64,000 nt of DNA from a virus (lineage: Duplodnaviria > Caudoviricetes): positions 32,001 to 96,000 of IMG/VR virus record IMGVR_UViG_3300001598_000001. The stretch is one strand, 5' to 3'. Below the pieces are notes generated by a model. That model worked only from the letters and a program-made list of their open reading frames with translations. It ran no database searches and was not told where the DNA came from. Positions 5,989-57,231 of this stretch are shown here, one piece after another. The translations under genes and the position numbers were made by a program. Every line of letters begins with the position of its first letter. Position 1 is the first letter of the stretch.

Positions 5989-6059
5989 ATTCTTTCCTCC
6001 TTTTAATTACAATAACAAACAGATTTTAGTTAACGTCGACAATCCTAACCGACACAAGA

Positions 6060-6245: not shown

Positions 6246-6360
6246 TGTTATTTCCTCCTATAGATGTATATAATTCTTTATATGGTAGAATTACACCACT
6301 TGCTATAACGGGCAGGTCCCAGTGTTGTTTCCAACACTAAAAAATATAATGTATAATAAA

Positions 6361-6690: not shown

Positions 6691-6701
6691 AGAATTCCTT
6701 T

Positions 6702-6878: not shown

Positions 6879-6879
6879 T

Positions 6880-7197: not shown

Positions 7198-7597
7198 GTT
7201 ATATTTTTCCTCCTTTGTACTTATTGAGCTTTATTCGCTCATTAAAACCCTCAATATATTTTAATTGAAAGTTTTAATGAAGGAATAAATCCTTCATTTA
7301 AGCAATAAAATTATTAACTTCGGAATTATTTTGAAAACTCCAAAAGTTATTATTCCATATTAAATTTACTTCTAAATATTCGTTAGATTTAATTAGTGTT
7401 AAATCGGAGTGATTTTTATTTAAAACAAAATCAATATGGTTTTTGTTTAGCCACTCTATTAAACTTGCTAAACAACTTTCATTAAATACTCCATTAAAAT
7501 GTCTAATTTACATTTTTCATTTCATTAAATGATTCTATTTTATTCTTATCTGGTCTCCGTCTCCACCCGACATAAAAAAAAGAAGGGTTCTCCCCTT

Positions 7598-7780
7598 CTA
7601 TATCTCCTCGACTTCCCCTGTTACCTCTTCTAAGAATTCTGAAAGCAAAAGCATAATCATTCCTTCTTTACTGTATATTTCTTCTGAGTCATATTCTACC
7701 TTCCTTGGTAATTTAAATGTACGACCATAATATGTGACATTTGTAATATAGCGTTTTGATGATGTATTATTATCCTTCAT
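7598..7780 (-). CDS. Small hypothetical protein
   Basis: 60-aa ORF overlapping the upstream stop. Confidence 0.55.
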   Translation of the reverse strand: MKDNNTSSKRYITNVTYYGRTFKLPRKVEYDSEEIYSKEGMIMLLLSEFLEEVTGEVEEI

Positions 7781-8024
7781 AATCTTCCATCTCCGCTATT
7801 TCCATAGCTTCATTATATAACTCTTCAGGTGTAAGAAGAGAATAGTCTTCGTCATGATAAGATCCTATTTCCTCTCCATAAATATAAACTGTTAAATATC
7901 CGAAACGGTCAACAGAGTAAGTTACATCTGGGACATCATCTTCTAAATCAAACTCTGCATTTCTTTGTTGTGCGGTAAGATCAAAGATTTGTTGCTCCCA
8001 AGTTTTTTTCTTTTTTCTGCCCAT
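7770..8024 (-). CDS. Small acidic protein, apparent paralog of 8782..9018
   Basis: 84 aa; shares the Y-x-VD-x-x-G-x-L-x-VY-x-x-G-x-x-(I/L)G pattern. Confidence 0.7.
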   Translation of the reverse strand: MGRKKKKTWEQQIFDLTAQQRNAEFDLEDDVPDVTYSVDRFGYLTVYIYGEEIGSYHDEDYSLLTPEELYNEAMEIAEMEDYEG

Positions 8025-8025
8025 A

Positions 8026-8337
8026 TTATTTGGCCTCTTTTAATTTATCGATAATATGTTTAAGCATACTGTTTTCATCATCGCGTCTCCAACAATAATC
8101 TTGTAAATCGGAAATTTGATTATTTAAACCTTGAATACGACGTTGAGATTCTACCAATGCTGTTTGCTTGGTGGCAAGTTCTTCGACAAGCATTACTATA
8201 AGTTCTCTGTAATGTTGAATAGCAGCATAATCTTGATTGTAATCACTGCCGTTGCAACACTCGTTGCGTTGATATTTAGTGTCATCGTCGTCTATCAAGC
8301 CAAGTTCTTTGGCTAATTCATAATATTCATCATTCAT
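8026..8337 (-). CDS. Coiled-coil hypothetical protein
   Basis: 103 aa, heptad-like C-terminal half. Confidence 0.7.
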   Translation of the reverse strand: MNDEYYELAKELGLIDDDDTKYQRNECCNGSDYNQDYAAIQHYRELIVMLVEELATKQTALVESQRRIQGLNNQISDLQDYCWRRDDENSMLKHIIDKLKEAK

Positions 8338-8338
8338 A

Positions 8339-8686
8339 TTATTTTTCTTCCTCCTGATTAATATATAAAGTTCCTGTTAATTCTTGAGAAGTGTGATGTC
8401 CTTCTTTGACAAGAATGAATTGAGAATAACTTCCGTAGTCGCAAGAAATAACCGAATCACTAAATAAGATGGAACGGGTATAGTGAGACGATGCTTGAAG
8501 TTTTGGATCTAAAATTAATAATGGATTAACGCGGTGAATATTTTCTTCATAAACATAAGAAACTTTTAAAACCGTGTCAACATAATCAACAGATCCCGAA
8601 TACCATGCAACAGTATATTCTTTGAGTTCCGAAGATTCAAAATCTAAAAACTCGACTGATTTAAGTTGAACATTTTTCTCTGCCAT
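8339..8686 (-). CDS. Hypothetical protein
   Basis: 115 aa, AGGAGG RBS. Confidence 0.7.
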   Translation of the reverse strand: MAEKNVQLKSVEFLDFESSELKEYTVAWYSGSVDYVDTVLKVSYVYEENIHRVNPLLILDPKLQASSHYTRSILFSDSVISCDYGSYSQFILVKEGHHTSQELTGTLYINQEEEK

Positions 8687-8781
8687 AAATCGGATAACCT
8701 CCTTTGAGTATTATTTAAAACAAAACGTAATATACATTTATTGAAATAAAATGTAATTACAGTTATATAATATGCTAATTT

Positions 8782-9018
8782 TTAAAATAGAAAAGAATCA
8801 ATAATATCTTCAACCTCTTGTTCTAAATCTTGTTTAGTCATTGAAGCGTATTTTTTCTTTTTAAATGTGCCAAGTAATTTACCATCTAAATAAACATAGA
8901 GTACACCATTTTCATCTACATAGTATTGACCTGGGCCTGTGCTGTCCAAATCAGCAAAACCGCCTGTATTAACATCTTGAGTAGAACAAAGTAGGCGACG
9001 AAGTTGAAATATTAACAT
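8782..9018 (-). CDS. Small protein, apparent paralog of 7770..8024
   Basis: 78 aa, AGGAGG RBS. Confidence 0.7.
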   Translation of the reverse strand: MLIFQLRRLLCSTQDVNTGGFADLDSTGPGQYYVDENGVLYVYLDGKLLGTFKKKKYASMTKQDLEQEVEDIIDSFLF

Positions 9019-9104
9019 AAATAATTATCCTCCTGTATATGTGCTTTGAAACCTATATTTAATTATTTTTTTATTTTTTGAATTATATATAAGTAGTAAT
9101 TATA

Positions 9105-9158
9105 ATATACACGCGCATCGCGTATATGTGTGCGTATATATACGTACGCGCATACGTA
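9105..9158. repeat. Alternating purine-pyrimidine tract
   Basis: 9119-9158 is a perfect 40-bp YR alternation (cgcgtatatgtgtgcgtatatatacgtacgcgcatacgta). Confidence 0.8.
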
Positions 9159-9176
9159 AATGAAAAGTTAATTTAA

Positions 9177-9503
9177 TTAAATATCTGTACTTTGAACATT
9201 TACCAAACTAATACCCAATCTAACTAAATCACGAAAGATTGGATAATCATTTGCATCAACATAATCTATACAACGAATACCGACAGGACTTAAATATGCC
9301 CCTTCGTCTGCATCATAATAAATAAATGTTAAAACAATATAATTTGGTTCTTTGTCAGGATTAAAATGATTACAATTATATTCAATACTTAATCCTTCAC
9401 AAACAGGAAGGGTAACGAATCCTTCCGCATTGTCGCTGATTTTAGTAATATTACAAATACGGAAAGGACCTCTAATTATATCGATAGTAGAACCCGATAT
9501 CAT
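9177..9503 (-). CDS. Hypothetical protein
   Basis: 108-aa ORF within the operon. Confidence 0.7.
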   Translation of the reverse strand: MISGSTIDIIRGPFRICNITKISDNAEGFVTLPVCEGLSIEYNCNHFNPDKEPNYIVLTFIYYDADEGAYLSPVGIRCIDYVDANDYPIFRDLVRLGISLVNVQSTDI

Positions 9504-9505
9504 AA

Positions 9506-9724
9506 TTATTTACCTTCTTTTTTTACGGGATGATCAGCAGGTGCAACAGTTGGTTGAACTTCAACATAAGAATTAACAACTTGTTCAATTTGTGTTAAAG
9601 CATCTAAAGCACCAGCATAATAATCATAATTTTCTTTGGTACAATTACGATTACTAATAGAAGGGTAAATATTATTTCTTAAATTAGAAATAGTTTGTAA
9701 TAAAGTTTCTTTTAATGTGGCCAT
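9506..9724 (-). CDS. Hypothetical protein
   Basis: 72 aa, AGGAG RBS. Confidence 0.7.
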   Translation of the reverse strand: MATLKETLLQTISNLRNNIYPSISNRNCTKENYDYYAGALDALTQIEQVVNSYVEVQPTVAPADHPVKKEGK

Positions 9725-9747
9725 ATGTTTCTTCTCCTTTTATATGT

Positions 9748-10440
9748 TTAATTTAAAATATGCGAATCGACGCCATTATCATTTTCATGGTCGTCGTAAT
9801 CACTGTGATTGGGATCAACAGGTTTATTAAAATGTTTGTCAATATTATCTTGAAAAATTTTTAATTCATCGGTTGAAAATTCATATCCTTTACTTTTTAA
9901 CAAAGTTAGATATAATGGATCAAATTTTGTAATATCTAAAGACGTAATATACATTGGTTCTTCCTCGGGTGCAGCAAAAGAAAAATCTAACGGTACACAA
10001 TTATAAAACATTCTCATCATTGATGCAACCTCTACGGCAGATAAATGCATTTTAGCAATACTGTAAATATTTTTTGGATCATCTGGGTCTAAACAAGAAG
10101 TTAGATATTCATTCCAAAGTTCAGAAGTGTAAGACGGAATCTTTGTGTCATCTTTAACATGTTGCACACACCAGCTTTTAAAATGATCATAATTATTATA
10201 ATAAGTAAAACGACCGATAGCTTCTGTGGCTTCTTCTAATGAAGATACTACACATAATAATTTGTTAGAATTATGTGATGGAAAAATACCATAACAAATA
10301 ACGCTGTCTTTTGCAACAGCAGATGTTTTACCACGCTTCTTGGCTTTTTTAATATTCGATTTTGGCTTACAACGAAACAATGTGGATAATAACAATTTAA
10401 TTTTTACTAATGATATCATACTAATTTTTTCCTCCCACAT
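9748..10440 (-). CDS. Hypothetical protein
   Basis: Up to 230 aa; start may be the Met at 10419. Confidence 0.65.
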   Translation of the reverse strand: MWEEKISMISLVKIKLLLSTLFRCKPKSNIKKAKKRGKTSAVAKDSVICYGIFPSHNSNKLLCVVSSLEEATEAIGRFTYYNNYDHFKSWCVQHVKDDTKIPSYTSELWNEYLTSCLDPDDPKNIYSIAKMHLSAVEVASMMRMFYNCVPLDFSFAAPEEEPMYITSLDITKFDPLYLTLLKSKGYEFSTDELKIFQDNIDKHFNKPVDPNHSDYDDHENDNGVDSHILN

Positions 10441-11116
10441 TTTGAGTATCTATAATATATTTATAAATTATTTTAATAGTATTTGGAGTATAAGGTCCAA
10501 AATATATTTTTTCATCATCTTTTTGAGACTCTAATATATCATGACACCACTCCAAAGTAAAACAAGGAATTGGTTGCTTAGAACCCACTACTTCCATATT
10601 TAAATTATAATGGGAATGCAGGTAACTTGTCAATTGGTTTTGCTGAGTAGTGGACAAACGAGTAATATCTGCTAAATAGAATATAACTTTACGATCGTAA
10701 TATACTCAATGAGATGAGTGAAAAAATTTACGATAATATACTGTAAACGCAATTAATAATTGTAAAATTTTAGAATCAAAATTATGTGCAGGAGAAGAAT
10801 TATATAATTCTTGTGCAAAAGTTATTAATTGTTGTACATCACTATTATATAAAAATATTTGACCTTCATCGGACTGAGCGACATCTAAAAGACAGACGTC
10901 TAAAAATTTATCATAAAATTCAGGAGCTGTTAAACGATCATAAATTAAATTAGCTATTGGAGCAACAGAAGAAACTGGAAACGAATAATCTGTAGTAAGA
11001 ACAGAAATAATATTATTAACGGTTTCTTCTTTAGAAGTGTTAGCAGTTAAATGATTGCGTACTAAACGATACATTTGTTGTCATTCAACTGGTTGTAGTT
11101 CAATAAGTTCTTTCAT
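10421..11116 (-). CDS. Hypothetical protein (TGA=Trp)
   Basis: ORFs 10706..11074 and 10421..10657 join in frame through TGA at 11081-83 and 10706-08; GGAGG RBS; 231 aa. Confidence 0.75.
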
Positions 11117-11118
11117 AA

Positions 11119-14019
11119 TTATTCGCCTCCTTCATCATCATCTTCTTCAATATTTAAATCATCATCTTCCACGTTATTATAGTTTGATCAATTAAACATA
11201 GCTTCAATTAATCGATCTACCGCAATACTTGTGGTATCAGATACATCTTTTAAATAATATTTATTTCCTAAATATTCATATGTACCTTCTTCATTATCTT
11301 TAACAGGTGCAAAAGTTGGACCAGGAGGAATTAATTCAACAATCTTTTCTCCTATAATTTCCCAAGCAAATCCTCAGTTAAAATTAGACAATGTTTGAGA
11401 TAGTTTGTGACAATAGAATAAGAACTCCTCATATGATAAACCAGTATCTAATAATTGGATTTGTAATTCTTTGATAATAGCATCATAGATATTAGAACGT
11501 AATTCAATATAGTCATCATCAAAAGTGTCCTTATTATATAATGCAGTTAAACGTTTAATTTGTTTTTTAGATGTGTAGGATGAATACATCTTTTTAACCT
11601 TTGCTAATTTAATTTCGTCAAAACTATTTTCATAATCTTTTTCATATGTTGGTAGTTTTGATATTTTATATTTCTTATTTCCTGTTTGAACATCTTTTGC
11701 AAATTTAATATCAAAATCAATTGATTCAAATTCACGACAGAGTCTATTCATGGTACAATCAGAAGTGATTAAAGGAGAATATTTTTGATAACGACGAATT
11801 AACATTTTTTCTTCTTCTGTTTGATTTTCTTTCTTTAATAACTTTTTAAATTTAATTCCAAACATATCACGACTGATTTGATTATAAGAATCTTCAAAAC
11901 GTTTAAATTTTTGATTTAGTTCTGGATATAAATATCTAAAGAAATAAGGTTTTTTAGCAACAACAATAGCATTGTTTTTAATCTTTTTTAAACGGGTTTC
12001 AGCATCGTCTTCAGGATCTATTTTTTCAAATTTCTTTCATTCTGAAGGTAAGAATGGTTTATCTGCTCCTTTAATACGGTCAATTTCCTGTCCAACAATT
12101 TCACGTAATAATTTAATACGAGTCATGATGATATTATATTGATCTTCATGTCCTGGTTTATTAAAGATTGCAGCCATTGCATAAAGTATAGTTGCAGTAT
12201 TAGAAAATCCACCAACTCCAGTACCAAAACCTTTCATAACTGTTTTTGTAATATTGTTAACCGTCATTTTTGCTGGAACGGCTAATCCTTTTTCATAAGT
12301 GATAATACTGTGATCTTTATGAGAACCTTTAATAAAATATTCATTATCAGTAGATAATACAATATCTCCATCAAAGTCAGCGTCTTCGGCTCTAAATACA
12401 GCAGTGTCGTATGTAGAAAAAACAATACCACTGTTTAAATAACGCAACCAATAATCTGCTTCGTCATTATGTAACAAAACTTTACTTGGATTATGTTCAT
12501 GGACATCAATCATTGGGCTACGACATAAATCAACGATATCAGCATTTCTTTTATTTCAGAACGATGACCAAATAGTGTCTTTTGGAACAATACCAACTGG
12601 ATCTAATCCCAAAGCAGCTTGACACTGAGCTACAGGATCGCTAACCATAAATTGATAATTTCCTTTGATTCATATTTTTCCTAATTTAGCATGATTAATA
12701 GATTCGGCAATATTTTTATAAATTTTATATTGAACATAACTATCTTGTAAAAAATCAACATTTTTCACAACAGCTTTCATTGCTGATGTTTGAGCAATAC
12801 TGTACATTGAATCATAATCTACGTCATTGTCTTTTACACCAAATGAATATAATAATGTTGGTAATAATTCACCAGAACAAATTTGTTGAATTCAATTTAC
12901 TGTAGGTTGAATTAATTGCTTAATATCTTCTTTACTCAACTCAAGAGATTGAATATATTGATAATTAGCTAAAACATATTCTTCATCTTGACGTTTGTTG
13001 TATCTAGCTACACCTCAATGAATTTCACCTTGTTTAGCATATTCACAATATTCTTGCCAACTATTATAATATTTATAAGTTTTAAATTGTGATTCGGAAA
13101 GTAAAACATCAATATCATTGATATTGTATTCTACACCCCAACGATCTCTAATGGTGAAGATATTATGTTTATGAGCATATTCTTTAAAATCAAATGTTGC
13201 TAAATTACCTTTAATAAAACAAGATCTTGCTACAAATGAACAAGGGGTATAAGATAAATTCATATCTTGTGCCCAAAGCTCAGCAAAATAAGGATCAATT
13301 AATCCTTGTCCATCAGCACAGTTTAATTCTAAGTCCATAATTCTTGGATCAATATATGATTTACCATTTTCATCTTTACAAATAAAATCCACTTTTTCGT
13401 TTGGTAAAGTACGATAAAAATCTTTTATTACACAAACTCTTGGTGTTCTTACCCAAAGAATAGAGGAAAAAGCTAATGCAAAATAAGCACTATACTTAGC
13501 TAAAACAAATTGAGAAGTTTTTTCATCTAATCCACAATTTAATCTTTTAACTAAAAAATCATACAATTCTTCATTTACAAAAGTAGCTGTGTTACGTCTA
13601 ATTTGTCCAGACCCAGAACATAAATAAACATAATGAATTCCATTAACATTAAATCCATTGACACGAAATTTATGAAAGTCAGATTTTTTACCGTCTAAAT
13701 AAACGTTAATAATATCTTTAACAAATAATTTTTCAGTAATCGCTCTATCTAAAATATGTGCTTCTTTATACTTACCTTGCTTTTTATAAATATGCATGGT
13801 ACTACGTAATTGACTAATTTTATTAAAAAGTTTATTATGTTCTTGATAATTTCCATAGTAATATCTGATTTGTTGAAAAATTAGATTATCACCAATTGAA
13901 ACAATATTTTCTTCTTTTTCTCCACGTGATATGGTATAATTTTCAATTTGACAATTGTTAGCAACTATAAACGAAGCAGGTAATTTAAAGACTTGATATA
14001 AGTTTTGACAAACTGCCAT
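11119..14019 (-). CDS. YonO-like single-subunit DNA-dependent RNA polymerase (cellular RdRP fold), TGA=Trp
   Basis: Three track ORFs fuse into 966 aa through ~7 TGA. Motifs CADGQG, FIKG, RSP, DADFDGD, VGGFSN, GQEIDRIK. Context matches SPbeta yonO. Confidence 0.9.
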
Positions 14020-14030
14020 TGCTTTCCTCC

Positions 14031-14396
14031 TTAATTATTATCAATTGAAATTCAATCAGAATCTAATGCATCTAAATTTTCAGCATCATATTTTTTATAA
14101 TATATTTCTGTGTGTTGTATCATAAAATCTATCATCTCAGATAATTCTTTGTCGTTTTTAACATAAAAAACATTATCATAAATATTATTATTTTTATAAT
14201 TATTTAAAGGTGATATATTTAATAAAATAGTGTAATTGTTTTCTTCGAATGGTGTATTATTATTTAAAATAAAAATATATTCTTTGTCTGAACTAGCATC
14301 AATAATATTAATGTTTAATCAGGTATTTTGTAATTTTTGATTATATTTATTATTAATTTCATTTAACACGGTTTGTATTTCTTCTGGTGTAATCAT
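14031..14396 (-). CDS. Hypothetical protein (TGA=Trp)
   Basis: MITPEEIQ..., 121 aa with 2 TGA, GGAG RBS, TAA stop directly before the RNAP RBS. Confidence 0.65.
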
Positions 14397-14487
14397 AGTT
14401 ACCAATCTCCTCAAAATTTATATTTTATATCATAATTTGTTTGATTTTTTAATTAACTATATAATATAGTTAACCTCATCTATTAAT

Positions 14488-27961: not shown

Positions 27962-29497
27962 ATGATAACCGTTGATAAAGAAGACATAGTAGAATATTAT
28001 ATTAATCAAAACCATTCAGTCCAACAAACAGCTGAACATTTTAATATTAATTGTAAAACTTTTTTTGGATGGCTACACAGATTAAATATTCACAAAGACA
28101 AAACATTAAGTCAACAAAATGCACAAAAAGCATTAAAAGATAAGCACATTATGGAAAATAATCATCCAACTAAAGATGAATTATATCAATATTATATTGT
28201 TCAAAATCATTCTGAAACAGAATGTTGTCAATATTTTTCAGTATCACGTTCGTCTATTCAACGTAGGATTAAAAAGTATCAATTAAATAAAGATACACAA
28301 CAAATTCAAAAATGTACCCAACATACTGTTTTAAATAAATATGGTTATAATTTTGTTTTACAAGATCCACAAATACAAAAAATAAATAAAGCACGACTAC
28401 AAGAAAAATACGGTGTACAAAATATTGCACAGCAATATATTCAACATTTAGATATATGGAATGATAAAGATAAATTTGTAAAATTTTTAAAACAGCAAAA
28501 TGTAAAAATGACAGCAGTAAGTTTGGGTAGATATTTTAATGCTCATATAAGTACTTGTTTGAGAAAAATCCATAGTTTGGGGTTAGAAAATCTTATTGAT
28601 ATTAAGCCTGCTACATCGCAATATGAACAAGAAATTATTGATTTATTACATAATGAGTTTAATATTGATAATATTATTCAAAATGATAGAACAGTATTAA
28701 ATGGGAAAGAAATTGATATTTATTTACCAGATTATAATTTTGGAATTGAATTTAATGGTGAATATTGGCATTCAGAAATTGGTCACCCTCATTATGCTGA
28801 AAGAAATGGTAGATCCACTTATCACCAACAAAAATCTTTAGAGGCAGAACAAAAGAATGTTTTTTTATTTCATATTTTTGAACATGAATGGTGTGAACCA
28901 TTTACAACTGTAAATCCTAAATTTACAAATAGTCGTAAAAAAATTATTAGTCGTTTAAGATCAATATTACATTATAATGAAAAGACTATAGGTGCTCGTC
29001 AATGTGTAATAAAAGAATTAAGTTATGATGAAAAAACACAATTTCTAGATTGTAATCATTTTCAAGGTAATGATATATCTAGTAATTATTATTTAGGATT
29101 ATTTTATCAAAATGAGTTGGTTAGTTGTATGACTTTTGGTAAATCTAAATACAAAAAATATACCTGGGAACTAAGTAGATTTTGTAATAAAGAAAATTAT
29201 CAAATTCTTGGTGGTGCCTCAAAGTTACTTAAATATTTTGTAGATAATAAAATGTGTAAAAATGATATTTTAGTTTCTTACAGTGATATTACTAAAACTA
29301 GTGGAAATTTATATAAAACATTGGGTTTTACTAATACTCAAATTAATGATCCTAATTATTGGTGGGTTAATTTTAATACTGGTGATGTAAGAACTAGATA
29401 TCAAGAACAAGCTGCTGGTGAAGTAGCGCGTATGCATAATAAAGGATATTATAGAATCTGTGATTGTGGTACAAAGACATGGATTTTGAAAAAATAA
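27962..29497 (+). CDS. Free-standing homing endonuclease (Hef/Vsr-like PD-(D/E)XK) with N-terminal HTH repeats
   Basis: EIDIYLPDYNFGIEFNGEYWHS, FHIFEHEW, WELSRFC, GGASKL, DCG motifs; two N-terminal YYI..NHS HTH repeats; no TGA. Confidence 0.8.
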   Translation: MITVDKEDIVEYYINQNHSVQQTAEHFNINCKTFFGWLHRLNIHKDKTLSQQNAQKALKDKHIMENNHPTKDELYQYYIVQNHSETECCQYFSVSRSSIQRRIKKYQLNKDTQQIQKCTQHTVLNKYGYNFVLQDPQIQKINKARLQEKYGVQNIAQQYIQHLDIWNDKDKFVKFLKQQNVKMTAVSLGRYFNAHISTCLRKIHSLGLENLIDIKPATSQYEQEIIDLLHNEFNIDNIIQNDRTVLNGKEIDIYLPDYNFGIEFNGEYWHSEIGHPHYAERNGRSTYHQQKSLEAEQKNVFLFHIFEHEWCEPFTTVNPKFTNSRKKIISRLRSILHYNEKTIGARQCVIKELSYDEKTQFLDCNHFQGNDISSNYYLGLFYQNELVSCMTFGKSKYKKYTWELSRFCNKENYQILGGASKLLKYFVDNKMCKNDILVSYSDITKTSGNLYKTLGFTNTQINDPNYWWVNFNTGDVRTRYQEQAAGEVARMHNKGYYRICDCGTKTWILKK

Positions 29498-38183: not shown

Positions 38184-39191
38184 ATGGGACGTAGTACAGT
38201 ATATAATGATAATTTGACTCAAAATTGGTCAAATGTATCACAACAAAATAAAAGATTAGTTAAAGACTTTTTACAATATTGTAAATCCAATGATAAAAGT
38301 CCACAAACTCTTCATCAATATGAAGAGTGACTTAAAGTTTTCTTTTGTTGAAATTTTCAAGAAAACGAAGATAAATTTTTTATTGATTTAAAAAAGAGAG
38401 ATTTTGTTTATTATTTTGGATGATGTAGAGAGTTAGGAATGAGTGCAAATCGTATTGCCGCACTTAAGTCTGTTCTTAGTAGTTTATCATCTGAAATTGA
38501 ATTATTATATGAAGATTTATATCCTAATTTTCATAATCAACTTAGAGGATTAGAACCTGTACATATTACTACTGTTCGTGAAAAAACAGTTTTATCAACA
38601 GAAGAAATTAATAACATTCTACAAACATTGGTAGAAAAGAAAGAATATCAATTAGCTTGTTATTTAGCATTGTTGTGTGCTTCTGGTGCTCGAAAAGCAG
38701 AAATGCTACAAATGCGACCTGATTTTTTCACTGAAAGCCACGAAGTTTTCGATGGATATATGTATTGCACTCCACCTATTAGATCTAAAGGAAGGGGAAA
38801 ACAAGGAAAAATTATTAAAAAATATGTGATTAAAGAATTTTTTAAACCTTTTTTTGATTTATGAATGGAAGAACGTGAAAAAGAAAATATTACATTGTCG
38901 AATTTATTTGTAACTAAAAAAGATGGTCAATACGTGGAAGCTACCACATCAACAGCTAATAGTTTTGCTGCAAAAATTTCGAAAATGTTTAATATAGATT
39001 ATTATAACCACTCTGGTAGACATTATTTTTGTACATTATTAAAATCAATGAATTTACCAGATGATGTTATAGTACAAATTTTTAGTTGAAGTGACGGATC
39101 CATGGTTAAAATTTATGATGATACGCCAGTCGAAGAAAAATTAAATAAATTTTTTATGCAATTTAAAAAGGAAGAAATAAAAGGAGAATAG
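38184..39191 (+). CDS. Tyrosine recombinase (YomM-like), TGA=Trp
   Basis: 335 aa. SGARKAE, RSKG, HSGRH, IFS[W=TGA]SDGSMVKIY give an R-K-H-R-W-Y catalytic set. Confidence 0.85.
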
Positions 39192-40547: not shown

Positions 40548-40642
40548 AGGGGCTTAGTGTAGTGGTAGCACACGAGACTTCAAATCTCGGGTAACAGCGT
40601 CCAAAGCTGCGGGTGTGGGTTCGATTCCTACAGCCCCTGCCA
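40548..40642 (+). tRNA. Opal-decoding tRNA-Trp(UCA) with a 25-nt variable region
   Basis: AGGGGCT/AGCCCCT-G-CCA acceptor (Trp-like), GTGT/GCAC D stem, CGAGA-CTTCAAA-TCTCG anticodon arm, GTGGG-TTCGATT-CCTAC T arm. Confidence 0.9.
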
Positions 40643-44338: not shown

Positions 44339-44412
44339 CGCAGGGTAGAGTAGTGGTTACTCAGTGGGCCCATAACCCACTCAGGCGAGTTCAATTCTCA
44401 CCCCTGCAACCA
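44339..44412 (+). tRNA. Initiator tRNA-fMet(CAT)
   Basis: C1:A72 mismatch, GGG/CCC anticodon stem, CAT anticodon, ACCA end. Confidence 0.85.
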
Positions 44413-44553
44413 ATTATTATTATTTTTCCAAAGGAAAGATAATGAATATTAATTTTTTGTGGAAAAATAATAATTATTTAAATAATTATTAATATAATAT
44501 AAGTCGCTTAAATAAAAGCGGCTTTTTATTTAGTAAAATAGGGGGTATAGACC

Positions 44554-47500
44554 ATGAAAGAAAAAATAATTGAATATACAAACCTTAGTGATATTGATTT
44601 TAGTAAAAATAGCACGTTATACAAAGATATTAGTAGTATGGATAAGAAAGTCCGTGCTTTTGACGCTAGATCCAATGAAATTAATGATAAAATAAGTAAA
44701 GAAATATTCAGAGACGCTTTAGTAAGTGGTGGTAACAATAGTATTTTAGATTCTTTACATGGTATAGAAAACCTATGTCGTAGTAACGGAATTCAAACTA
44801 AAGTAACAGTAACAAACGATGGAATTAGTTTAGTGGCTTATGATGAAAATAATCAAGTTGTACCAGTTATCTCTTATATGGCTGGTTCAGATGGATTAGT
44901 AATTCGTGATAATTTAGTAGTATTAGATTCTTTGTATTATAGTCAAAATAATGCCACTGGTAAATCTCAATTAATTAATGGAACAGTTGCTTATTTAAAT
45001 GAGTTTAATAAAATTTTAAAAACTAATTGAAGTAAGTTAAAATCACAAAAACAAGATTTTAGTTCTATTTTACAGTTTGCTCGTAATGAAGCTAATAAAC
45101 AAATTCCTATAACTAATCAAGGAACTTATAAATTTGTTGGTAATTCTGGAAAAGAGATTTTATCAAACTTAAAAAAACAAAAAAATGTTTTTAAAAACAA
45201 GAGTAAGAGTTTCGATGTTGATCCTAGTGCGTTTTGAGAAAATATTATTTATGACACTGTTAGAAAATCGGTAGCTCCTGGGGTTACTTCACAAGATCAA
45301 TCTTGAGCACAAAAAGAACGTGAAATTCGTCCAATAATAGAAAAACTTGCTAAAGAAGCTTCTAAACTACCTTCTGTAAAACAAGCAACTCGATTATTTA
45401 GTGAAGATTATGATATTAGAAAATTAATTACTAAAGACAGTAATCTAAAAGCTAAGATTATGGAAGCGGTTAGATTTTTTTCTGAAATTACTTGAAATCA
45501 ATCTAATATGTCTGAAGCTGATGCCCATAAAGGTAAAGTGGCAATATTTGGCGATAGTAGAACTGGTATTTCTGGTCAAGAATCAATTACTAAAAAAGAT
45601 CAAGGTAGTTCATATTTAAAACGAACTAAAGCTGGTCAACACAATACTTATGCACATGTAGCTGGTGGTATTTTAACTTCTAAAACAGGTTTTAAAGGTA
45701 ATTCTGCAGATTATGATTTATTTACTATTGCTCCTGTTGAATCTGAAGCAATTTCTGAAGGTATGAATAATATGTTTAAAGCAGCCGTAGAACACGAAAA
45801 GGTTGCTCGTGAAAACATTAAAAAATACGGAGAAAATATCAAACACAAGGCAGAATTAATTAAAATATTAAAAAATAAACTTGATACTATTAAAAAAGAT
45901 GACTATAGTGATTTAGAACATGAAATGATTTCTCAAATTATGGAAATTTATGAAAATTATCGCACTGTTCATGATACAGGTAATAATCAAGTGCAATTTG
46001 ATACTCCTGAAGAATTTAGAGATTATTTAGTTAATGAAGCTAATAAACGTTTTGCTCAAAAAGTAAAACAACGCAAAACTTATAATAAAGAAAGAAAGAA
46101 ATCTTTAACTAGTGAAATTGCTGATATTAAAGTTGCAAACACAGACGCTAAATATAAACAAGCAGCAGCTAAAGCTTATCATAAAATTAATGAAGAATCT
46201 GTAGAAGATTTTGCTTTAGACAAATTGCGCAAACAATATCATATGGATTTTAATCCTAATAAGCCTCATTCTGATGTGTTGGATGATCAAATCATTATAG
46301 TTAAAGAAGCATTAGCTGAAATACAAACACAATTAATGCAACAACAAGTTTTTACAGAAAAAGATATTAAAAAAGCTATGAAAGCTGGAAATTATCAAAT
46401 TTCTGAAGAAGCTGTGTTGGCTAAAATAAACGAACAACGAAAACAGCAAGGTTTAGATCCTGTTTCTATGAAAGACCTAAAAGTTGGACTTAATAAAGAA
46501 AAAGGTGTATTTACAGCACAATATACTGAAGATTTTATTATCAAAGAAGGAACTAAATTATTAAATTATTTAGGTAGAGAACGTTGATCTTCTTCAAGTT
46601 TACCAGCAGATGTAATGAAATCTGTCTTAAAAGCACAAGCACGATTAATTGCTTCTGTTAAATCTGGTACTAATGATGTTAATGACACTAAATATCAAAA
46701 AGAATTTGCAAAAGCCAATTCTATGTATTTTGATTCCAATGATAATCTTAAAGTTGCAGGCGTTAGTGGAATTAGTTCATCTATTAAAGGTGAAAAATTT
46801 TATGGTTGAAGCCAAGGTGTTATGTCCTATGCTTTAGGTGAATTGTTTAATCAAAGTTATAAAAAGAATATTTCTAATGGTCAAGAAAAAGCAGTAGCTA
46901 AGTCTGAAGCTATTAATAAAGTTCGTGAAAAATGAAATGAATCTGTAGATAAACTAGTCGCACAAGGACAATTAACTACAGAACAAGGTGAAAAATTTAA
47001 ACAATTAGTTACAGGTGTTAATGAAAAAACTGGAAAAGTAAATTTTAATACTGATTCAAAAATTACAGATTTTGTTAATAAAAATTTAGTACATTACGTC
47101 AAGTTAATTAATACTGTTTACAAAGATAATACAGGCCGTAAACTTGGTACTTATAAAAATAATAAAAATGAAGGAGAAGTTTTTGAACTTGATCCTTATG
47201 CTTTATATGATATAGGTATTAATCCGTCTATAGTTGCCGAGGGAGATTGGGATCCACATAAGAGAGTTTCAATGGCTCATAATGAAAGACAAATTAAAGA
47301 AAGAGAAAATGAACGTTTAGCAGCTATGGGTAAAGACGTCACTGTTGAAAGAGCTATGCTTGATGTTCAATATGAACAAGCTATTGAAAAAAATACTAAA
47401 TATCAAAATAAATTAAAAGCTGTTAGAGACGCAGTTACTAATAATTTTAATGCTGATAGAATTGATGTTGAAGACAAAGATAAAGATATCACAGCTATTG

Positions 47501-50500
47501 TAAATTTAGCTGATTTAAATAATGCTAAAAATGTTGAAAGAGATGTTATTGACCCTGCTACATTTAATTCTAAAGATTTTACTCAAACTAAAGAGGGTAT
47601 TATTTGGACAGCACAACAAAATAAATATCAAGAATTATTAAATGAGTTTATTGATCCAAATAAAATTAAAGAAATTGAAGAATTGCGTAAAGCTAAAAAA
47701 TATAAAAAAGCAAAAGAATTAGAGGTACTAGAACAACAAAGAGTACAAAAAGCCGTATTAGATAAATATAAAGTTGAAAGTGCCAAAGATATTAAAATTG
47801 CTGGAAAAACTAATATTCAAGGATATTTAAATAAGAGTGTATCTGGATTAGATTATGATGCTATGACAGGAGAGCTTTTAGATCTTGCTGGATACGATAT
47901 AGAACAAGATGAAAATGGCAATTATCGTATTAACAACACAGCAGACTATGAATATAATCGTAGTATTCTGAGATCTTATGAAAACGCTCTTAAAGAAGAT
48001 ATTTTAGAAGATAGACAAGCAAAATTTGGAACTGGAATTTATAAAGCTGGTCTTGAACGTGAGCGAGCTTACGTAGAGAAAAAAGGTTCGGAATTTGAAA
48101 AATTTGCTAAAAAAGAAAGAACACATAGTAAATTTTTAAAAACTAAAGATTTAAATAATGCTGAAAAAGATACATTATATACTAGTAAGAGTGATATTAA
48201 TGAAATGATTTCTCAACGAGAGAATGAAACTGATGAGGAATATAATAAACTTATTAAAGGTATATACAAAGATACTTTAGGTGTTAATAATGCTCCAAGA
48301 AGAAAACAAAATGAAACTCTTCAAGATTATAATACTCGTATTAAAGATAGTGTATTAAAAGCTATTATAGAAGACGATAAAGATCTTATCATGGATGTCA
48401 CTAGAGATCCTAATAATACAGCTATGGCTGGTATGAAAGTTAAAATTAAACATTTAACTGGTATAGGCGAAGGTGTAGTTGGAGGAGATCCAGCTTTAAT
48501 TAAATTTCTTAAAGGTGACTATGATGGTGATAGATTAGGTTTAGCTTTAGATGCTGATGGTAATATTATTGGTGCTGTTCGTATGACTCAAAAACAAGTT
48601 GACGAACATATGCTAAAAGAAAGAATATTAGCGGAAGAAGATGCTGAAGTATTACGTTTTATTACCAATCAAAAAGGTGGAAGTACTTTACCGTCTGCCA
48701 GCACAGCTATTAAAATAGACAAAAATGGTAAAAAATATATTGAAAATACTACGTTAGATGTAGCTGATTTAACAGGACTTGAACGTAATGCTTCAACACA
48801 ATTATTATCATTTGAAGCAAAACAAAATAAGGATGACTATGTTGGACTATATTCTAATTTTAGAACTAGTGCAACTACTGGATTAGAAGAAAAATTTGGA
48901 AAAGGTTTAGGTAAAACAGTAAATACTGCTAAAACTGGATTAGCTATTGAAGCCTTATCTTTATTATTGGCTCGTCCAGAACAAGCTGCAATTTCTTCTA
49001 AACACTTGAAAAATTTAGCAGCCACTGATCCTGAATTATTTAAACAGTGATTTGAATGAGAAGAAAATGAAAATGGTGAACTTATTCATAAAAAAGATGA
49101 AAATGGCAATGTTATTTTCAAACAAGCTTATTTAGATCGTTATGAAAAATTAGCTAAAGATTTAAAGAATTCTGATAATTGAAACAGTGAAACTCAAAGA
49201 GAAGCATTATTACAAGAAATGGTTAATCTTGGAATGATTGAAGGTAGTGGTAAATTTACTGACGATCAATTCTTTGGTGAATTTTGAAAACTTGCTAATA
49301 CTGAATTAGGACGTAAAGGTTTAACTGGTATTAACAAACGTTATAATAAATTATACGGAAAAGATGGTAAATTAAAAGCTGGTGCTGATTTAAGTATCAT
49401 GGATCTTGATTTTATCAGAGATATGTTAAATTGGTTATCAGTTCAAAGTGCAGAACTTGCTCCTAATGAAACATTGGGACATATAGTAACTACTGGTAGA
49501 CAATCTGCTCTTGATAAACAACGTGTTTATGATCAAAAAAATTTAATTGAAAAACCAACTGAAAAACAAATCAAAGAACACAAAGAATCCTTGGGTAAAG
49601 ATGTCGAAGTAGAAATTCTTAAATCTATTAATTTATTAATTGATACTATTAGACAGTCTAGTGGAGTCATTGCTCAAGCAGCAGGTATTAGTGGTGGTAA
49701 TGGAAATCGTTTTGCTTATAATATTTCTAATATTACAGATAATAATAAGAGAAATGTTTTAGCTGCTGCATCCAGAGCTGGTGGCTATACTAATAAAATT
49801 ACACCTACTGAGATTGCTCGAGTGAATGCTCGTAGTGGGGATAAAATTTATAGTAATTGAGATGAAATAATTAAAATTTTAGAAGATCCTACTGTAGATG
49901 TTAAAGAGAAACAACGTATTATTGGTCAAATGTCCGATGCTGACAAAAATTGGGCATTAGCCACTCGTCGTGGTAAATTAGTTCACCAATTTAGTGAAGA
50001 TCAACGTTTAATTGAAAAATATAATTTAACTAACGTAGATCCAAATAAATGAAATGAAACATTAATTAATCAATTTAAAAACACCAATGATATCAATGAA
50101 AGAAAAGAAATTTCTCAATTTTTAGGTATTTTAAACAAAAAATCTGACGAATTAAATCATGAAAATGGTGGTTTTGTAAAACAATATAAAGAATTTAGTG
50201 AATTAAGTAAAATTTTAGATATCAAAGATACAGATTGATTATCTAAAATTATAGCATCAGCTCAAATTTTAAATAAAATGTCTTCCAATGAAACAGTTAT
50301 TGGTAAAGAAGTTGGTATGCATAATTATATTAATGTTAATGGTGAAGATACTGTTGAACATGGATATATTGACCAAATTACCAGAGCGGCTGTTAAGAAG
50401 GCCCAAACAGATATTAATGGTGAAAAATATGAAGTAGATGCTAATCGTTATACAATGGAAGATTTAAAAACTACTTCTGGAACAGGGGTTGATCTTTCAT

Positions 50501-53500
50501 TAAAAGACGCAGAACAAGTTCTTCGTTATATTAATTATGGTAGTCAGGCTAATAAACAGTTTAAAGAGGAATTAGGTGGACTTGCAAAAGTTCCTACCAC
50601 AGCCAAAGAGTTAAAAGATTTTTTAGCCAATGAAAAAGATTTAAATAAATATGCTGCAATTCGTCAATTTGTTGATGATATTGAAGAAAATGGTGGGGTA
50701 CTTACTGACGATCAAGTTCAAATGTTAGCAGATAAAAATGCTATTTTTGAAGGACGTATTAAAAAAGTAGATACTCAAACAAATGAAGCTGCATCGTATC
50801 GTATTGGTGCAAGTCAAGCTAAAGAACTTATTCAAAGATCACAAAACGGAGAAGATATTAGTGGATTTTTAGGTAATTTTGTTGAAGAAAGACAATTTTA
50901 TCAAGCTGGTAATTCTGTTTCTGAACTTAAAGAAGAAATTACTTTATTAAAACAAAAATATGAATTACAGTTAAAAATTAATAAAGCTTTATTAGAAGGA
51001 AAAGATAATGAAGCTGCTGTTCTACAAGAACAAGAAAAAGAAGTTGATCTAAAACTTAAAGAAGCTCAGAAATCAACTAATAAAATTGCTGACACCACAG
51101 AAAGAAAAAAATATGTTCGCGATACTCGTAAGGAGATTGAAGAACAATTACAAAAAGAAAATGATCAAGCTTTAAAGTTGTTACAAGCTCAAAAGAATGA
51201 TAAACAAAAAGCTGGTCCTAATAAAAATATATTAGCTCGTTTGAGCACGGGATTTGATGAGGGAATTACTCAACGTTTGAATCGTGCATTTAGTGGTTAT
51301 GCTATTTTTGCTAAACTTACTCAAGGGATCCAAACCGTTAAAAAGAATGTTATTGATTTAGATAAAGTTTTGACTAATCTTCGTATTGTCACTCAACAAA
51401 ATGAAGAAAGTACTCGAAACTTGATTAAGGGGTATTCAGAACTTGCAGGAGAATTAGGTGTGTCAACAACAGCTGTTGCTACAGCTGGACAAGAATGGCT
51501 AAGACAAGGCTATGATATAGCAGAAACCAACAAATTAATTGAAGCTTCAACTAAATTAAGTATTTTAGGTATGATGTCTTCTGCTGATGCTGTTAAATCA
51601 TTAACCAGTGCAATGAAAGGATTTAAAATGGAATCCTCAGAAGCAATAGATATAGTAGATAAATTAACCAAATTAGATGTTAATGCTGCTACTACTGCTG
51701 GTGAAATTGCTAGTGCATTATCAGAATTTGCAAACGCTGCAAGTTTAGGTGGCTTAAATATTGATCAAGCTTCAGCAATGGCAACTACTATCATGGATGT
51801 TACTCAAAATAGTGGTTCTCAAGCTGGTAATGCTCTGAAAATGATGTTATCAAGATTTGGTAATGTTAAATCTGGTGCCTATTCAACTCTTAATATTTCT
51901 GGCGATGCAGATACGGAAAGTGCTAGTCTAAACGATGTAGAAAAGGTTTTAAAGAATATTGGTGTATCATTAAGATCATCAAATTTAGAATTCCGTTCAT
52001 TTAGCGAAGTTTTAGATGAAATTAGTGAAAAATGGGTTAATTTAGATAATGTTAGTAAGAATGCAATTGCAACTGCTTTTGCTGGAACAAGACAACGTGA
52101 ATCTTTCCTTGTCTTGATGGAAAACTATGATAAATATCAACAATTACTAAAAGTATCTGAAAGTGCCGCTGGAACTTCTGAAGAAAAAATTAAATCTTAT
52201 CAAGAATCTATTGCTGCTTTACAAGAAGAAATAAAAGCCGCATGGGAAAATTTAGCTAATAATAAATCTATTTCTGACTTCTTAAAACTTATACTTAGTA
52301 CTACAACCCAACTTATTAAATGATTACCGTGAATAGTTAATATATTAAAACCATTATTAGCTACTAAAACAATTAGTATCGCTTCCAACTTTTTTGGTAA
52401 TGGGTTAAAAAATGGATTTTCTGGTTTATTTAAAAATGTTACTGCTACACAAAAGAATACAACAGCAATTGAAAAATTAACTACAACTTTAGAAAATACT
52501 TCGAACACTTCTGGAAACGGCGTATATAGTCGTAATAATATTGCAGTTGGTGCTGCGGGTATTACATCTACAGGTGCATTAACTTATGGTAATAAATCTG
52601 TCGGTCTTGGTGATGATGGTAAGTATTATTATTTAAAGAACGATGGTTCTTTATCTAAAAGATCAGTTAGTGCTGCGGGACAAAAAGAAATTCAACAAAC
52701 CGCAGAAAATAATAAAAAGCTTAAAAAAGCTGGTAGTTGAAGAAATAAAACGGGTGGTGAAAAAGTTGCTGCTGGTGCAGCTGCTGGATTATTAGCTGGG
52801 TTAACAGCTGATACCGATACCAAAGATATATATGGTACAGGAGACACAACCGTTAATTCTACATTACAAACTATAGATAAAGTTGCTACTGGTGCGGTAA
52901 CTGGTATAGCTACAGCAATTGGCGGACCTATTGTTGGGGGTATTGCTAATATATTAATGGAAGTTGCTACAAAATATGCAATGCCATGATTAGAAAAAAT
53001 TTTCTTCAAACGCGATTTTGAATTAAAACTTTTAAATAAAAGTATTAATGAAGCAAAAGAAAATATTGAAAAAATTAATAATATTCAAAACTCTTTAAAT
53101 ACTTTAGTAGAATTATCAAATAAAAACATTTTAATTGGTGAAGATTATACCAAAGCTGTTGATGAATTCAATAAAATATCTGCAGCACTGGTTGATGACC
53201 CTAAAACACTTAGTGTTTGAAATGAAATTTTACATAATACAGATGATTTATTAGATGGTGTAGATAATGAAACGCTTTCTTTGTCTACTTTACGAGAAGC
53301 TTATTTAACTGGTAGTGCTCAAGAGAGAGCTGAAATAGCTACTGCTTTACGTGCATCATCAGAATTAGTTGAAGCTAGAGAATTCCAACGAACTTATTCG
53401 GCAAAAATGTATGAAGTTAATGAAACTATTAATAGTGCTCGTCAATATGATGCTGAATTTTTAGAGAAAAACGGAGTTTTAGATCAATATAAACAATATG

Positions 53501-56289
53501 CTAAAAATAAATATGCACAAATGAGTGATGCCGAAATTATTAAACAATTTGGCAGTGTTGCAAGCGAATTAAAGTATGGAATAAATTGACTTGGTGGTTG
53601 GACAAATTTTAACACTAATAAAATGACTTCTTTAGACGTTGTTGCTCAGGAAGTTAGAAAATATTTAGAAGATAATGTTGATAAAACTTTCCAAGACAAT
53701 TTTAACTCTGATGTTCATTTACGCGAAGAATTATCTACTTTATTAAATGAAAGTGTTCTTGTTGATTATTGAAACCAAACTATTGAAAGTTTAACTAAAC
53801 AATTGGAACAAGGTGAAAATGTTAGTGAAGAACTACGCAAAGCTAATAACGAACTAAACAAAGTTCAAAATGCTATTAATTTAAAACAAAACTATACAGA
53901 TGAAATTAATTATAAATATGCTCAAGCAGCATTATCTGCTTCTGGTTTAGAAAATTTAACTCAAGCACAATTAAATAATATGGGTTATAAAGATAAACTT
54001 AATAAAATTGCAGAAAATATGGAGTCTTATGGTTATTCTGTTTATAATTCTGATGGTGTGTTATCAGCTCAAGCTCAAACATATATTGAAAATGCTATTA
54101 GAAGTAATAGTAAAATATATGGATCTGTTAGTGGTCAAGTCTATTCATTAGCTGAAGTTTTAAACAAAGATAATGAAAATTTATTTAGAAATTATCAAGA
54201 AATTCTATGGCAGTGATCAGAAGCTTTGGGTGTAAGTGTTGATGAATTAGATGATTTAAAAGATACTTTAGGAGATATTACCTTAGCTCAAGTTTTAAAA
54301 ACTCCAGACGAAACACGTCAAAATATTTCTGAACTAACTTCTATGTTCACATCTATTTCTTCTTCTACTGGTATTACCGCTGAAAATATAGAGAACATTA
54401 TTACAAAGTTCCCACAATTATTACCTTATGCAAGTAGTGTTGGTGATTTAATTGGGGGGTTAACCAAAGGCATAGAACAGTATAGTAAATTATATGCATA
54501 TCAGATCACTAATCAAATTTTAAATAGTGAATCTGTACTTTCAGATATTCAAAAAAATATGAGAGAGGGTACTGTAGATGTTGATATAAGTGAAGATGAT
54601 CAAAAACAATTATATGAAACATTGTTATCTAACTATTCATTTGGTAATGGAAGTGTTTTAAATGATATGCTTGGTTTAATATGGGGTAATGCTGAAGAAA
54701 ACGGTATAAGTGAGGAAAATCAAGAAAAATTACGAACTATTGTAGAATCTTATTTACCAGATATAGAAAATACGCTTGAGCGAGATTCTATTAAGCAACA
54801 AATAGATTATCAACAAAAATTATTTGATCAACAAATTAATAATTTACAAGAACAAAAAGAAATGTTAGATAATATAAATCATCAACGTGAGTATGAAAAT
54901 AAATTAATCGAAGCTAAACTCAAATTAGAAAATTCTCAAAAAGAAAAGAAAAGAGTTTGAAGATCTGGAGTTGGTTGGACTTATGAAGCTGATCAAAACA
55001 GTATTTTAGAAGCCCAAAAACAATTAGAAGATGTTGAAAATGAAAAGAACGTCTCTAAAATTGATCAAGAAATTCAATTATTGAATTCACAAAAAGAGTT
55101 ATTAGCTAATATTGCTAGTAGTGAAGAATTTGAAAATATGCGAGATTCGTGAAAAGGTTGGTCTGAACAAATGAAGCTTTATAATGAAGATCAAGAAACC
55201 ATAATCACTAATTTATCAACTTTATATAGTTCAATTAGCAAAATTTCTACTAAGGATATAGCTGAAGACATAGCTGATGCTGGAGTAAATAATGCTGATG
55301 AAAAATTAAATACATTAGATACTTTATATAATACAGCTCAATCTTATATAACTGGCGAAAATAAAAATGCTCCAACTACAGTAACTGCTTCCCAAGAATA
55401 TGCAGATTGAGAAAATAATCGAAATAATGCTCTAACAGCTTATCAAACAAAAGCCAATGAGTATAAGAACGTTATTACTCAAGATTGACAAACCAAACAC
55501 TCAGATCATGCAGCCATTATGAAAGCTTCTCAGCTTCATAATCAACAAGATACTATCATGATTGATGGAAAAGCCTATACTGTTGGCAATCAACCATTAA
55601 GTGACACAGATCCTTACTATCAATGAGTACAAGATGACCTTCGCGCAGGCGAAAAAGGCCCTCAAGACAGTAATGGTAAGGGTAAAGGTAAGTATGTTAA
55701 AGTATTTGATCCAAAAACAAGTACAGAGACAAACGAAGATGGAATATTAAATTATTCTCGAAGTAAAAGTAAAACATATGGAGAGGTTAATGGTTCTGAT
55801 GATAAAAAAGATTATAGTAGTTTAGTGTTATCAGATGTGGCAGCAAGTTTGAGTGATGGTACTATTTTAAGTAGTGAAAGTGGAACCGTAGAATATGTTA
55901 TGGTTATGAACCATCAACTTAGACAATTAGATCCGAAGGCCAAAGGAACTTTAGATTTAAATAGTCATGGCGTTTTATTGAATGAATTAGGAACAGAAGC
56001 AATTGTAACACCTCAAGGTACAATTACAGCTCTTCCTTCTCACTCAGGTATTGTGCCAGCTGATATTACTCGTAATTTATGAGAATTAGGAGAAATTTCT
56101 CCTACACTTACACATTTGCTTGATCATTTGAATAATCAAATGGTTCCTGGAAAGAGTGTATTTGGTAATGATGAATCATTTAATATTAATACTATTAATA
56201 TGACAGTTAATGCTGATAATAGTTTTGATGCTCAAAAATTTATTGAGAGTGTTAGACAACGCGCAGCTTTAACAAAACATAATCGTTAA
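44554..56289 (+). CDS. Giant tape-measure protein with N-terminal RNA-polymerase-like and PD-(D/E)XK nuclease-like domains (TGA=Trp)
   Basis: All track fragments share one frame: 3911 aa with ~28 TGA. TP901-type TMP core at ~51340-52260 (EWLRQGY, GNALKMMLSRF). GDYDGD at 48514; DLKT at 50461. Confidence 0.85.
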
Positions 56290-56316: not shown

Positions 56317-57231
56317 ATGATTAAAGATTATTATATTTATGATGGTACAACTTTATTAGGATTGTTGTATATTCCCGTTGGAGTAAGTTCAGATAAAATT
56401 ATTCCTTCGTTTATTACAACACTTGGTAAAGGATGTTTTAAAAATCAAAATTTTTCTACTATCATTATACCACCATCCATAAAAATTATTGAAGATAATG
56501 TTTTTGAAAATTGTAAATTTTTAACATCACTAGAAATTCCATCTACAGTTGAAACTGTTGGAAATAATATTTGTTGTAATTGTAACAAATTACAAACTTT
56601 TAAATATTCATCCACAACACAAATGGGTAAATTTATTTTACAAAATTGTTATATGTTAAAAGAGTTAATCATTAATGATGAAAATTTTCGTGTTTGATAT
56701 CACAATTCTGAAAAAGTATTCGGAATAGGTGTTTTAGATTATGTTACAGATAATGGATATAAAATTTATAAAGGACACTGAAGTATTGAAGAATTATTAG
56801 GTTGGGGATTACCAGTCGGTAAAGAAAATTTAATTTATTTTGTAGAATATAATAATAAAGTTTGGTATGATCCTTCTTTAGAACAAGCTTATAAAGGATG
56901 TCAATATCTTAATAGTAATATGTCGATTTGTGATTTTTTTCATAAAAAATTTTTACCTATGGATACAATCACATGATCGGAATTTTCTATTATATTGGGC
57001 ATTTGTTCGCAAGGAAAACCATTCTGAGATTTAATGTGTCATAAAGATTTAAATACTAACAATGATAATATTTCTGTAAATGACTTAATCAAAGTTTTAC
57101 AAAAACATCAATTTTTATCTCCTATATTGTTAAGATGAGTAGAAGTGTTACAACATAAAAATGAATGTTTTACAAAGTTTACAGATATTAGTTATGAAAA
57201 TATAAATTTATCTCAATATTTTCAATTATAA
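56317..57231 (+). CDS. BspA-type leucine-rich-repeat protein (TGA=Trp)
   Basis: IPSFITTLGKGCF / IPPSIKIIEDNVFENC..L / IPSTVETVG repeats; 304 aa. Confidence 0.7.

Follow-up and report, generated by a model that had tools for sequence, protein, structure and literature searches.

We analysed a 64,000-nucleotide stretch of phage DNA (positions 32,001 to 96,000 of the IMG/VR virus record IMGVR_UViG_3300001598_000001; Duplodnaviria, Caudoviricetes), called the window in the following, in which one giant open reading frame (ORF) encodes a tape measure protein (TMP) of 3911 amino acids (aa). We consider it probable that the front half of this TMP contains (aa ~1280–1650) the beta'-type catalytic module of a two-barrel RNA polymerase (RNAP) in a strongly diverged form. 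Judged from the sequence, it would consist of an R-x-P strand, then the DYDGD loop that binds Mg, and after this two blocks resembling a bridge helix and a trigger loop, in this order. The module is one of a fast-evolving and previously unannotated family, whose members are found in large uncultured phages ~1000 residues ahead of the TMP core. With an RNAP core in its TMP, ahead of the ruler part, the phage would probably bring a transcription enzyme of its own into the host. The phage itself is uncultured; the source record of the window is a complete viral genome of 131,489 bp with terminal repeats.

Conserved motifs in a family of tape measure-borne modules

The original prediction had proposed a hidden two-barrel RNAP module on the basis of five motifs in front of the TMP core. 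All five are found in the giant ORF at the positions predicted, and the distance of 38 residues between R1284 of the R-x-P element and D1322, the first Asp of the D-x-D-G-D loop, had been given correctly. In the six frames of the window D-x-D-G-D occurs in two copies only, one in the giant ORF and one in a 966-aa ORF on the minus strand (11119–14019) that is described below. The elements of the giant ORF are arranged as follows:

44554..56289, plus strand: ORF of 3911 aa (TGA read as Trp) with an N-terminal extension, the RNA-polymerase-like module and the TMP core
44554..47436, plus strand: K/E-rich, mostly helical N-terminal stretch, aa 1–961; no family hit, not conserved in sister phages
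46540–46560, plus strand: IKEGTKL, aa 663, within the N-terminal stretch; role of the lysine unsupported
48403, plus strand: RDP (R1284, P1286), R-x-P strand element
48403..48531, plus strand: catalytic-barrel signature R1284-D-P1286 ... D1322-Y-D1324-G-D1326 (beta'-type motif of double-psi beta-barrel A, DPBB-A)
48424..49275, plus strand: aa 1291–1574, matched by the leave-out family profile (window excluded)
48514, plus strand: GDYDGD, aa 1321
48835..49497, plus strand: aa 1428–1648, the sole confidently modelled part (predicted local distance difference test, pLDDT, 60–87)
48841..48858, plus strand: VGLYSN, aa 1430 (G1431 invariant), aligning with VGGFSN of the YonO family
48979..49005, plus strand: EQAAISSKH, aa 1476 (Q1477, I1480 and K1483 invariant)
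51316..55401, plus strand: TMP core, phrog_4211 over aa 2255–3616, E 6.4e-38
51439–52086, plus strand: PF10145 within the TMP core, aa 2296–2511, E 2.3e-27

To fetch sister phages, we started the searches from the gene of a YonO-type polymerase and from the TMP core, which is conserved; further members came from metagenome scans. Ten giant ORFs of these metagenomic phages share the ordered set R-x-P, D-x-D-G-D, VGxxSN and QxAISSK. Standard, TGA-recoded and TAG-recoded genes are found among them: L040 and L044 are TAG-recoded, the former with ~30 in-frame TAG and no other stop in ~2300 codons (L040:2191-9123). In at least six of the ten the TMP core is located in the same ORF (L003, L004, G001, G002, L041, L043). 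In the sister phages reached through the TMP core and the YonO-type gene, the motif set lies at aa 1188–1250, ~1000 residues ahead of the TMP core, and R-x-P is followed 38–44 residues on by NADFDGD, NADVDGD or GDMDGD, most family members having the canonical NADFDGD.

From ~-350 to +260 around the motif the N-terminal modules of the sisters are related to each other with E values of 1e-20 to 1e-5. BLASTP of the sisters against the window found almost nothing, except for L045 with an E value of 0.002 over the barrel. A leave-out profile made from eight members, with the window excluded, matched aa 1291–1574 of the window with 24.8 bits (E 6e-10), compared to 7.7 for the best of 300 shuffles. 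Because of this difference we take the motif set to be beyond chance.

In the alignment of all 11 sequences the sole invariant columns are R1284, P1286, D1322, D1324, G1325, D1326, G1431, Q1477, I1480 and K1483, and the 11 members agree in the order and spacing of these residues. Conservation of D-x-D-G-D in homologues had been set as a check for the original prediction, and its D, D, G and D are invariant in the 11 members. The confinement of invariance to catalytic-type columns is what selection for catalysis would be expected to leave. RDP, DYDGD, VGLYSN and EQAAISSKH, four of the five motifs quoted originally, coincide with the invariant columns and hold as the signature of the module. The fifth, IKEGTKL, had been proposed to provide the GxK lysine of a second barrel. 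We rejected this assignment because the motif lies ~300 aa outside the family-conserved region, and nothing marks it.

Similarity to catalytic subunits of RNA polymerases

The family profile was compared with 177,635 PDB sequences. RNAP catalytic subunits account for 20 of the 23 hits at E<1, with vaccinia Rpo147 (E 7e-4), phiKZ (0.006), AR9 (0.011), gp96 of phage P23-45 (8h2n, 0.041) and Thermus and bacterial beta' as the top matches. All of these alignments lie at the R-x-P...NADFDGD double-psi barrel, span ~60–70 columns and have marginal scores. PF00623 is the top Pfam match of two family members, below the threshold, and the window sequence by itself gave no PDB match with phmmer. The D-x-D-G-D loop, the R-x-P 38 aa before it and the profile similarity to catalytic subunits are the features of a two-barrel RNAP that we found in the module.

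Downstream of the barrel, VGLYSN is a candidate for the start of the bridge helix and EQAAISSKH a candidate for the N-terminal trigger-loop helix. The spacing from Q to H in EQAAISSKH is 7, the same as in the trigger loop of beta', and HMMER aligns the QxAISSK block of the family to the trigger-loop segment of vaccinia Rpo147. In the AlphaFold model made from 11 sequences aa 1428–1648 show weak structural matches to the segment from the bridge helix to the trigger loop in the largest subunits of RNAPs.

Searched alone, the barrel region is an orphan; its relatives came from the searches with the TMP core and the YonO-type gene and from the metagenome scans. With aa 600–1790 of the window, phmmer found nothing but the sequence itself among 1.84 billion representative proteins. 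A word-indexed search of 5.8 billion clusters with the window module, at near and shorter lengths, found nothing, and the same holds for tblastn of the window module against 50,697 deposited phage records and for a pattern scan of IMG/VR with it. Two further IMG/VR scans for the family added no new members. Likewise, tblastn with the sister modules L004 and L043 gave no match in deposited phages, so at tblastn sensitivity the family is absent from the 50,697 deposited phage genomes. No prophage relative of the module was found in 185,579 species genomes. Five deposited phages that encode a YonO enzyme (BUCT082, PMBT24, TR-TP1, c-st, MT835481) had no match to the profile of the TMP module; a positive control was run alongside.

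Reading frame and genetic code of the giant gene

As the original prediction had claimed, 44554..56289 is a single ORF when TGA is read as Trp (table 4). It closes with TAA and contains 28 TGA, 12 TGG and neither TAA nor TAG in frame. Under table 11 the same frame falls into at least 11 plus-strand pieces, which agrees with the expectation that standard annotation would yield more than 10 fragments. Between the module and the TMP core the table-4 frame runs on without a stop. At the GC content of ~30% in the window an accidental open frame of 3911 codons is out of question. Reading TGA as Trp is justified because three of the TGA codons (aa 3012, 3469 and 3843) stand where the homologues L003 and L004 have invariant Trp, and the TMP genes of these two are read through under the standard code. 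Uninterrupted fusion ORFs in the standard code are present in L004 (4258 aa) and G002 (2574 aa), so the fusion is no artefact of recoding; G001 uses TGA.

Translation of the giant ORF has a strong Shine-Dalgarno sequence available, AGGGGG at 44540–44545, 8 nt ahead of the ATG. Directly upstream of this ribosome-binding site, at 44339–44530 on the plus strand, we noticed a gene for tRNA-Met and, behind it, a 9-bp hairpin with a T-run (44501–44529).

We assigned the protein to the TMPs by its PF10145 and PHROG matches and by its position in the tail gene block. Only aa ~2000–3600 are recognisable as TMP. The first ~2000 residues have no match in Pfam, PHROGs or the PDB (the latter searched by phmmer with aa 1–2000).

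In the stretch that separates the RNAP module from the TMP core, at 50362–50529 on the plus strand (aa 1937–1992), there is a RecB-type motif string, GxhD...DhK...QhxxY. Such a string also arises in 1.9% of shuffles, and this region of the window has no Pfam or PHROG match and no family conservation. We regard aa 1937–1992 as an unconfirmed candidate nuclease. A Pfam-verified PD-(D/E)XK nuclease (PF12705, 26.5 bits) is located at a similar position in L043 (7300–8400), +443..+650 from the barrel motif, compared to +615..+670 for the string in the window. In two of the sister ORFs, L043 (1426–2000) and L038 (5130–5515), an additional N-terminal stretch matches phrog_192, the exonuclease subunit of a DNA polymerase, with E values of 5e-4 and 5e-9, so that such polyproteins collect several nucleic-acid enzymes. 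In G001 (C1:89349-92111) and G002 (C1:107545-109926), also listed as L031 and L032, the match to the TMP core comes in pieces separated by ~0.3–1.3 kb, with the end of the ORF inside the core. This suggests that either an element (intron, intein or homing endonuclease) has been inserted or the TMP is truly split.

A second polymerase and the distribution of TGA codons

Besides the giant ORF the window contains a free-standing polymerase gene and a tRNA gene matching the altered code:

11119..14019, minus strand: gene of a YonO/QDE-1-type single-chain RNA polymerase, 966 aa, 7 in-frame TGA; PF05183 E 4e-8, phrog_8308 E 4.5e-89
40548..40642, plus strand: tRNA with anticodon UCA (reads UGA), 95 nt, long extra arm; ARAGORN label SeC

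For the YonO-type gene 723 relatives were found; the 120 matches listed are 53–70% identical, and the contigs reach 155 kb. Its product is a candidate for the non-virion polymerase of the phage. It carries RSP, DFDGD, VGGFSN and GQEIDRIK, strings that the original prediction had read as the same ordered set as in the TMP module. As far as the strings are concerned this comparison stands, and a profile-profile alignment of the YonO family with the module is collinear through R-x-P, DxDGD and VGxxSN; the alignment is, however, weak (see below). BLASTP of the window module against the phage's own YonO-type enzyme gave no significant match, and PF05183 matched neither the TMP module nor eight sister modules at E values of up to 10.

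The UCA tRNA presumably acts as a suppressor reading TGA as Trp; its long extra arm is unusual for a tRNA-Trp. A UGA-reading tRNA is needed to translate both polymerase genes. The ten minus-strand ORFs at 349–10440 have no in-frame TGA. The next three minus-strand ORFs (10421–14414), including the one for the YonO-type polymerase, contain TGA, and so do most late genes on the plus strand. Since both polymerase genes contain TGA and the block 349–10440 does not, no new phage polymerase would be available before the suppressor tRNA acts.

Proposed role in infection

We propose that the polymerase module would be made late in the cycle, aided by the UGA-reading tRNA of the phage, and built into the tail within the TMP. 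At infection it would be ejected together with the TMP and transcribe the first genes of the incoming phage DNA. This early transcription would precede the translation of any new phage polymerase, and the separate YonO-type enzyme would act later. Early transcription could be carried out by the host polymerase instead.

A more far-reaching version ties these steps to the switch in genetic code as a three-step relay; taken with all its parts together we regard it as rather unlikely. According to this version the TMP-borne polymerase, made in the previous cycle and injected, would be the time-zero enzyme. It would transcribe the TGA-free early block in the standard code, for which the host polymerase would not be needed. 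Use of the tRNA that reads UGA, of the YonO-type polymerase with its TGA codons and of the recoded late genes would be possible only after this. As to its origin, the fusion would be independent of the Thermus phage case described below and have taken place in a lineage of Bacillota-type phages, possibly starting from a duplicate of a YonO-like gene.

Alternative explanations

Several results weigh against an RNAP module in the TMP. The single-sequence AlphaFold model of the module has a pLDDT of 37 and the model from 11 sequences a mean pLDDT of 48.8. For the barrel region, aa 1267–1388, AlphaFold2 stayed below 50 with 1 as well as with 11 sequences, a level that neither supports nor refutes a double-psi barrel around DYDGD, and Foldseek against the PDB and BFVD returned nothing meaningful. 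Of the two barrels claimed originally, only the catalytic one is supported by motifs and profile matches. A beta-type second barrel was not detected by the upstream profile, by the PDB search or by profile-profile comparison with YonO. With the upstream profile of the family the window is not found, the upstream alignment lacks invariant columns and RNAP matches in the PDB, the AlphaFold model is of low confidence in this region, and hhalign of the upstream region against YonO gave nothing. The hhalign probabilities for the module itself are low, with 15% for the YonO family (112 columns, E 0.0017) and 9.6% for the gp96 family (69 columns). In front of the first Asp the window has K-G, whereas most members have N-A. 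Finally, we infer packaging into the particle and injection together with the genome by analogy to characterised phages.

Some of these points would fit a relic RNAP which no longer polymerises and has become a structural, DNA-binding or ejection-related part of the TMP. We hold this explanation to be improbable. Besides the undetectable second barrel and the replacement of N-A by K-G, it would account for the extreme turnover of the module: sisters with 61–70% identical YonO share no module similarity detectable by BLAST. However, the Asp triad, the Arg and Pro of R-x-P and the Q..I..K block are among the few invariant columns of 11 very divergent members, and the N-A positions vary in gp96 and YonO too.

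We give a small chance to an active two-barrel nucleotidyl transferase with another job, such as a QDE-1-like RNA-templated polymerase, a primase-like enzyme acting on the incoming genome or a PolD-like DNA polymerase. The sequence does not reveal template or product, and the neighbours of the module in a protein language model include a cluster of PF05183, a family named after RNA-dependent RNA polymerases (RdRP), with a score of 0.88. The K of the window stands at the position aligned to the N of NADFDGD, a residue which we take to select ribonucleotides in beta'. The best profile matches, on the other hand, are transcription enzymes. Moreover, the characterised phage members of the fold (YonO, gp96, crAss gp66, phiKZ, AR9) are all DNA-dependent RNAPs (PMC10770324).

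That the motifs are a chance product of a long low-complexity protein, or that RNAP and TMP are separate genes joined by a wrong code or an assembly error, is highly improbable and effectively refuted: D-x-D-G-D is expected in ~5% of proteins of this length (an estimate from composition), but 0 of the 300 shuffles scored above 7.7, the motifs are conserved in the ten sister ORFs, the fusion is present in unrecoded genes, TGA aligns with invariant Trp, and 3911 codons at 30% GC are free of TAA and TAG.

Other genes in the window

Among the late genes there are a 511-aa ORF of the homing-endonuclease/HNH-like kind (27962–29497, plus strand; phrog_3339, E 7e-80) and a 335-aa integrase-like ORF (38184–39191, plus strand; phrog_1, E 1e-22). 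The TMP gene is directly followed by a gene for a BspA-type leucine-rich-repeat protein (56317–57231, PF13306), and the TGA-free block includes an 828-aa PcfJ-like protein (349–2835, PF14284).

Significance

Before 2024 TMPs and RNAPs were thought to have unrelated functions, and one fusion of the two has been proven, in a small group of Thermus phages. In the window we see this architecture again, now in large uncultured phages of a lineage unrelated in sequence, whose codes are standard, TGA-recoded or TAG-recoded. Long-tailed phages may thus quite generally inject a polymerase on the TMP. A TMP-borne polymerase also offers an explanation of how infection starts in phages with recoded stop codons. 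Standard pipelines miss the module twice, as TGA shreds the gene and the module lacks a family model. Further members can be sought with the 11-sequence profile.

Comparison with known polymerases

The large subunits of multisubunit RNAPs (beta', Rpb1, Rpo147 and the split beta' of phiKZ and AR9) are the best profile matches of the family, at the R-x-P...NADFDGD barrel. They differ from the module, which is part of a single chain without a clamp, without a detectable beta partner and without their other conserved regions. YonO of the Bacillus phage SPbeta and QDE-1-like enzymes show the same order of R-x-P, DxDGD, a VG(G)FSN-type block and a Q-containing block. In YonO, however, the distance from DxDGD to the VGxxSN block is ~50 aa compared to ~108 aa in the module, and YonO enzymes are free-standing whereas the module is fused to a TMP.

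The virion RNAPs of crAss-like phages (phi14:2 gp66, PDB 6VR4) and of N4 follow the same concept of a very large packed protein that is ejected for early transcription (PMC10770324). These are podophages without a tape measure, and the N4 enzyme is T7-like with an unrelated fold. 6VR4 gave no sequence or profile match to the module family.

The closest precedent, which the original prediction had not mentioned, is gp96 of P23-45, a 5002-aa TMP with an N-terminal RNAP in a phage that has a second, non-virion RNAP (PMC10770324). Experiments on gp96 (PDB 8H2N, 8H2M; Chaban et al. 2024, PMC10770324) showed ejection of the RNAP together with the TMP and its transcription of the first genes of the incoming DNA. 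TMP-fused RNAPs of the gp96 type are also present in P74-26, G20c and TSP4. In the literature searched we found no experimentally shown TMP-RNAP fusion beyond P23-45. The concept has thus been published already; what appears to be new here is a separate module family in other phages.

Both proteins are giant TMPs (5002 and 3911 aa) with the polymerase at the N-terminal side, upstream of the ruler core. In both, R-x-P lies exactly 38 residues before D-x-D-G-D, both phages encode a second, separate single-chain RNAP, and the family profile matches gp96 at the barrel. D-x-D-G-D is located at aa 1322 in the window and at aa 779 in gp96, and unlike gp96 the giant ORF has no metallopeptidase domain in a Pfam search. 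The partner polymerase is of the YonO/PF05183 type here and of the gp64 type in P23-45. Unlike the Thermus phages, the phage of the window has a mesophilic host, probably of gut type, and a TGA-recoded gene. Activity and virion location have been established for gp96 alone. BLASTP of the module against gp96 found nothing, tblastn with gp96 found Thermus phages only, and homology to gp96 residues 327–1124 was not detected beyond the catalytic loop. As the kinship is limited to the barrel, the module would work like gp96 without being a member of the gp96 family.

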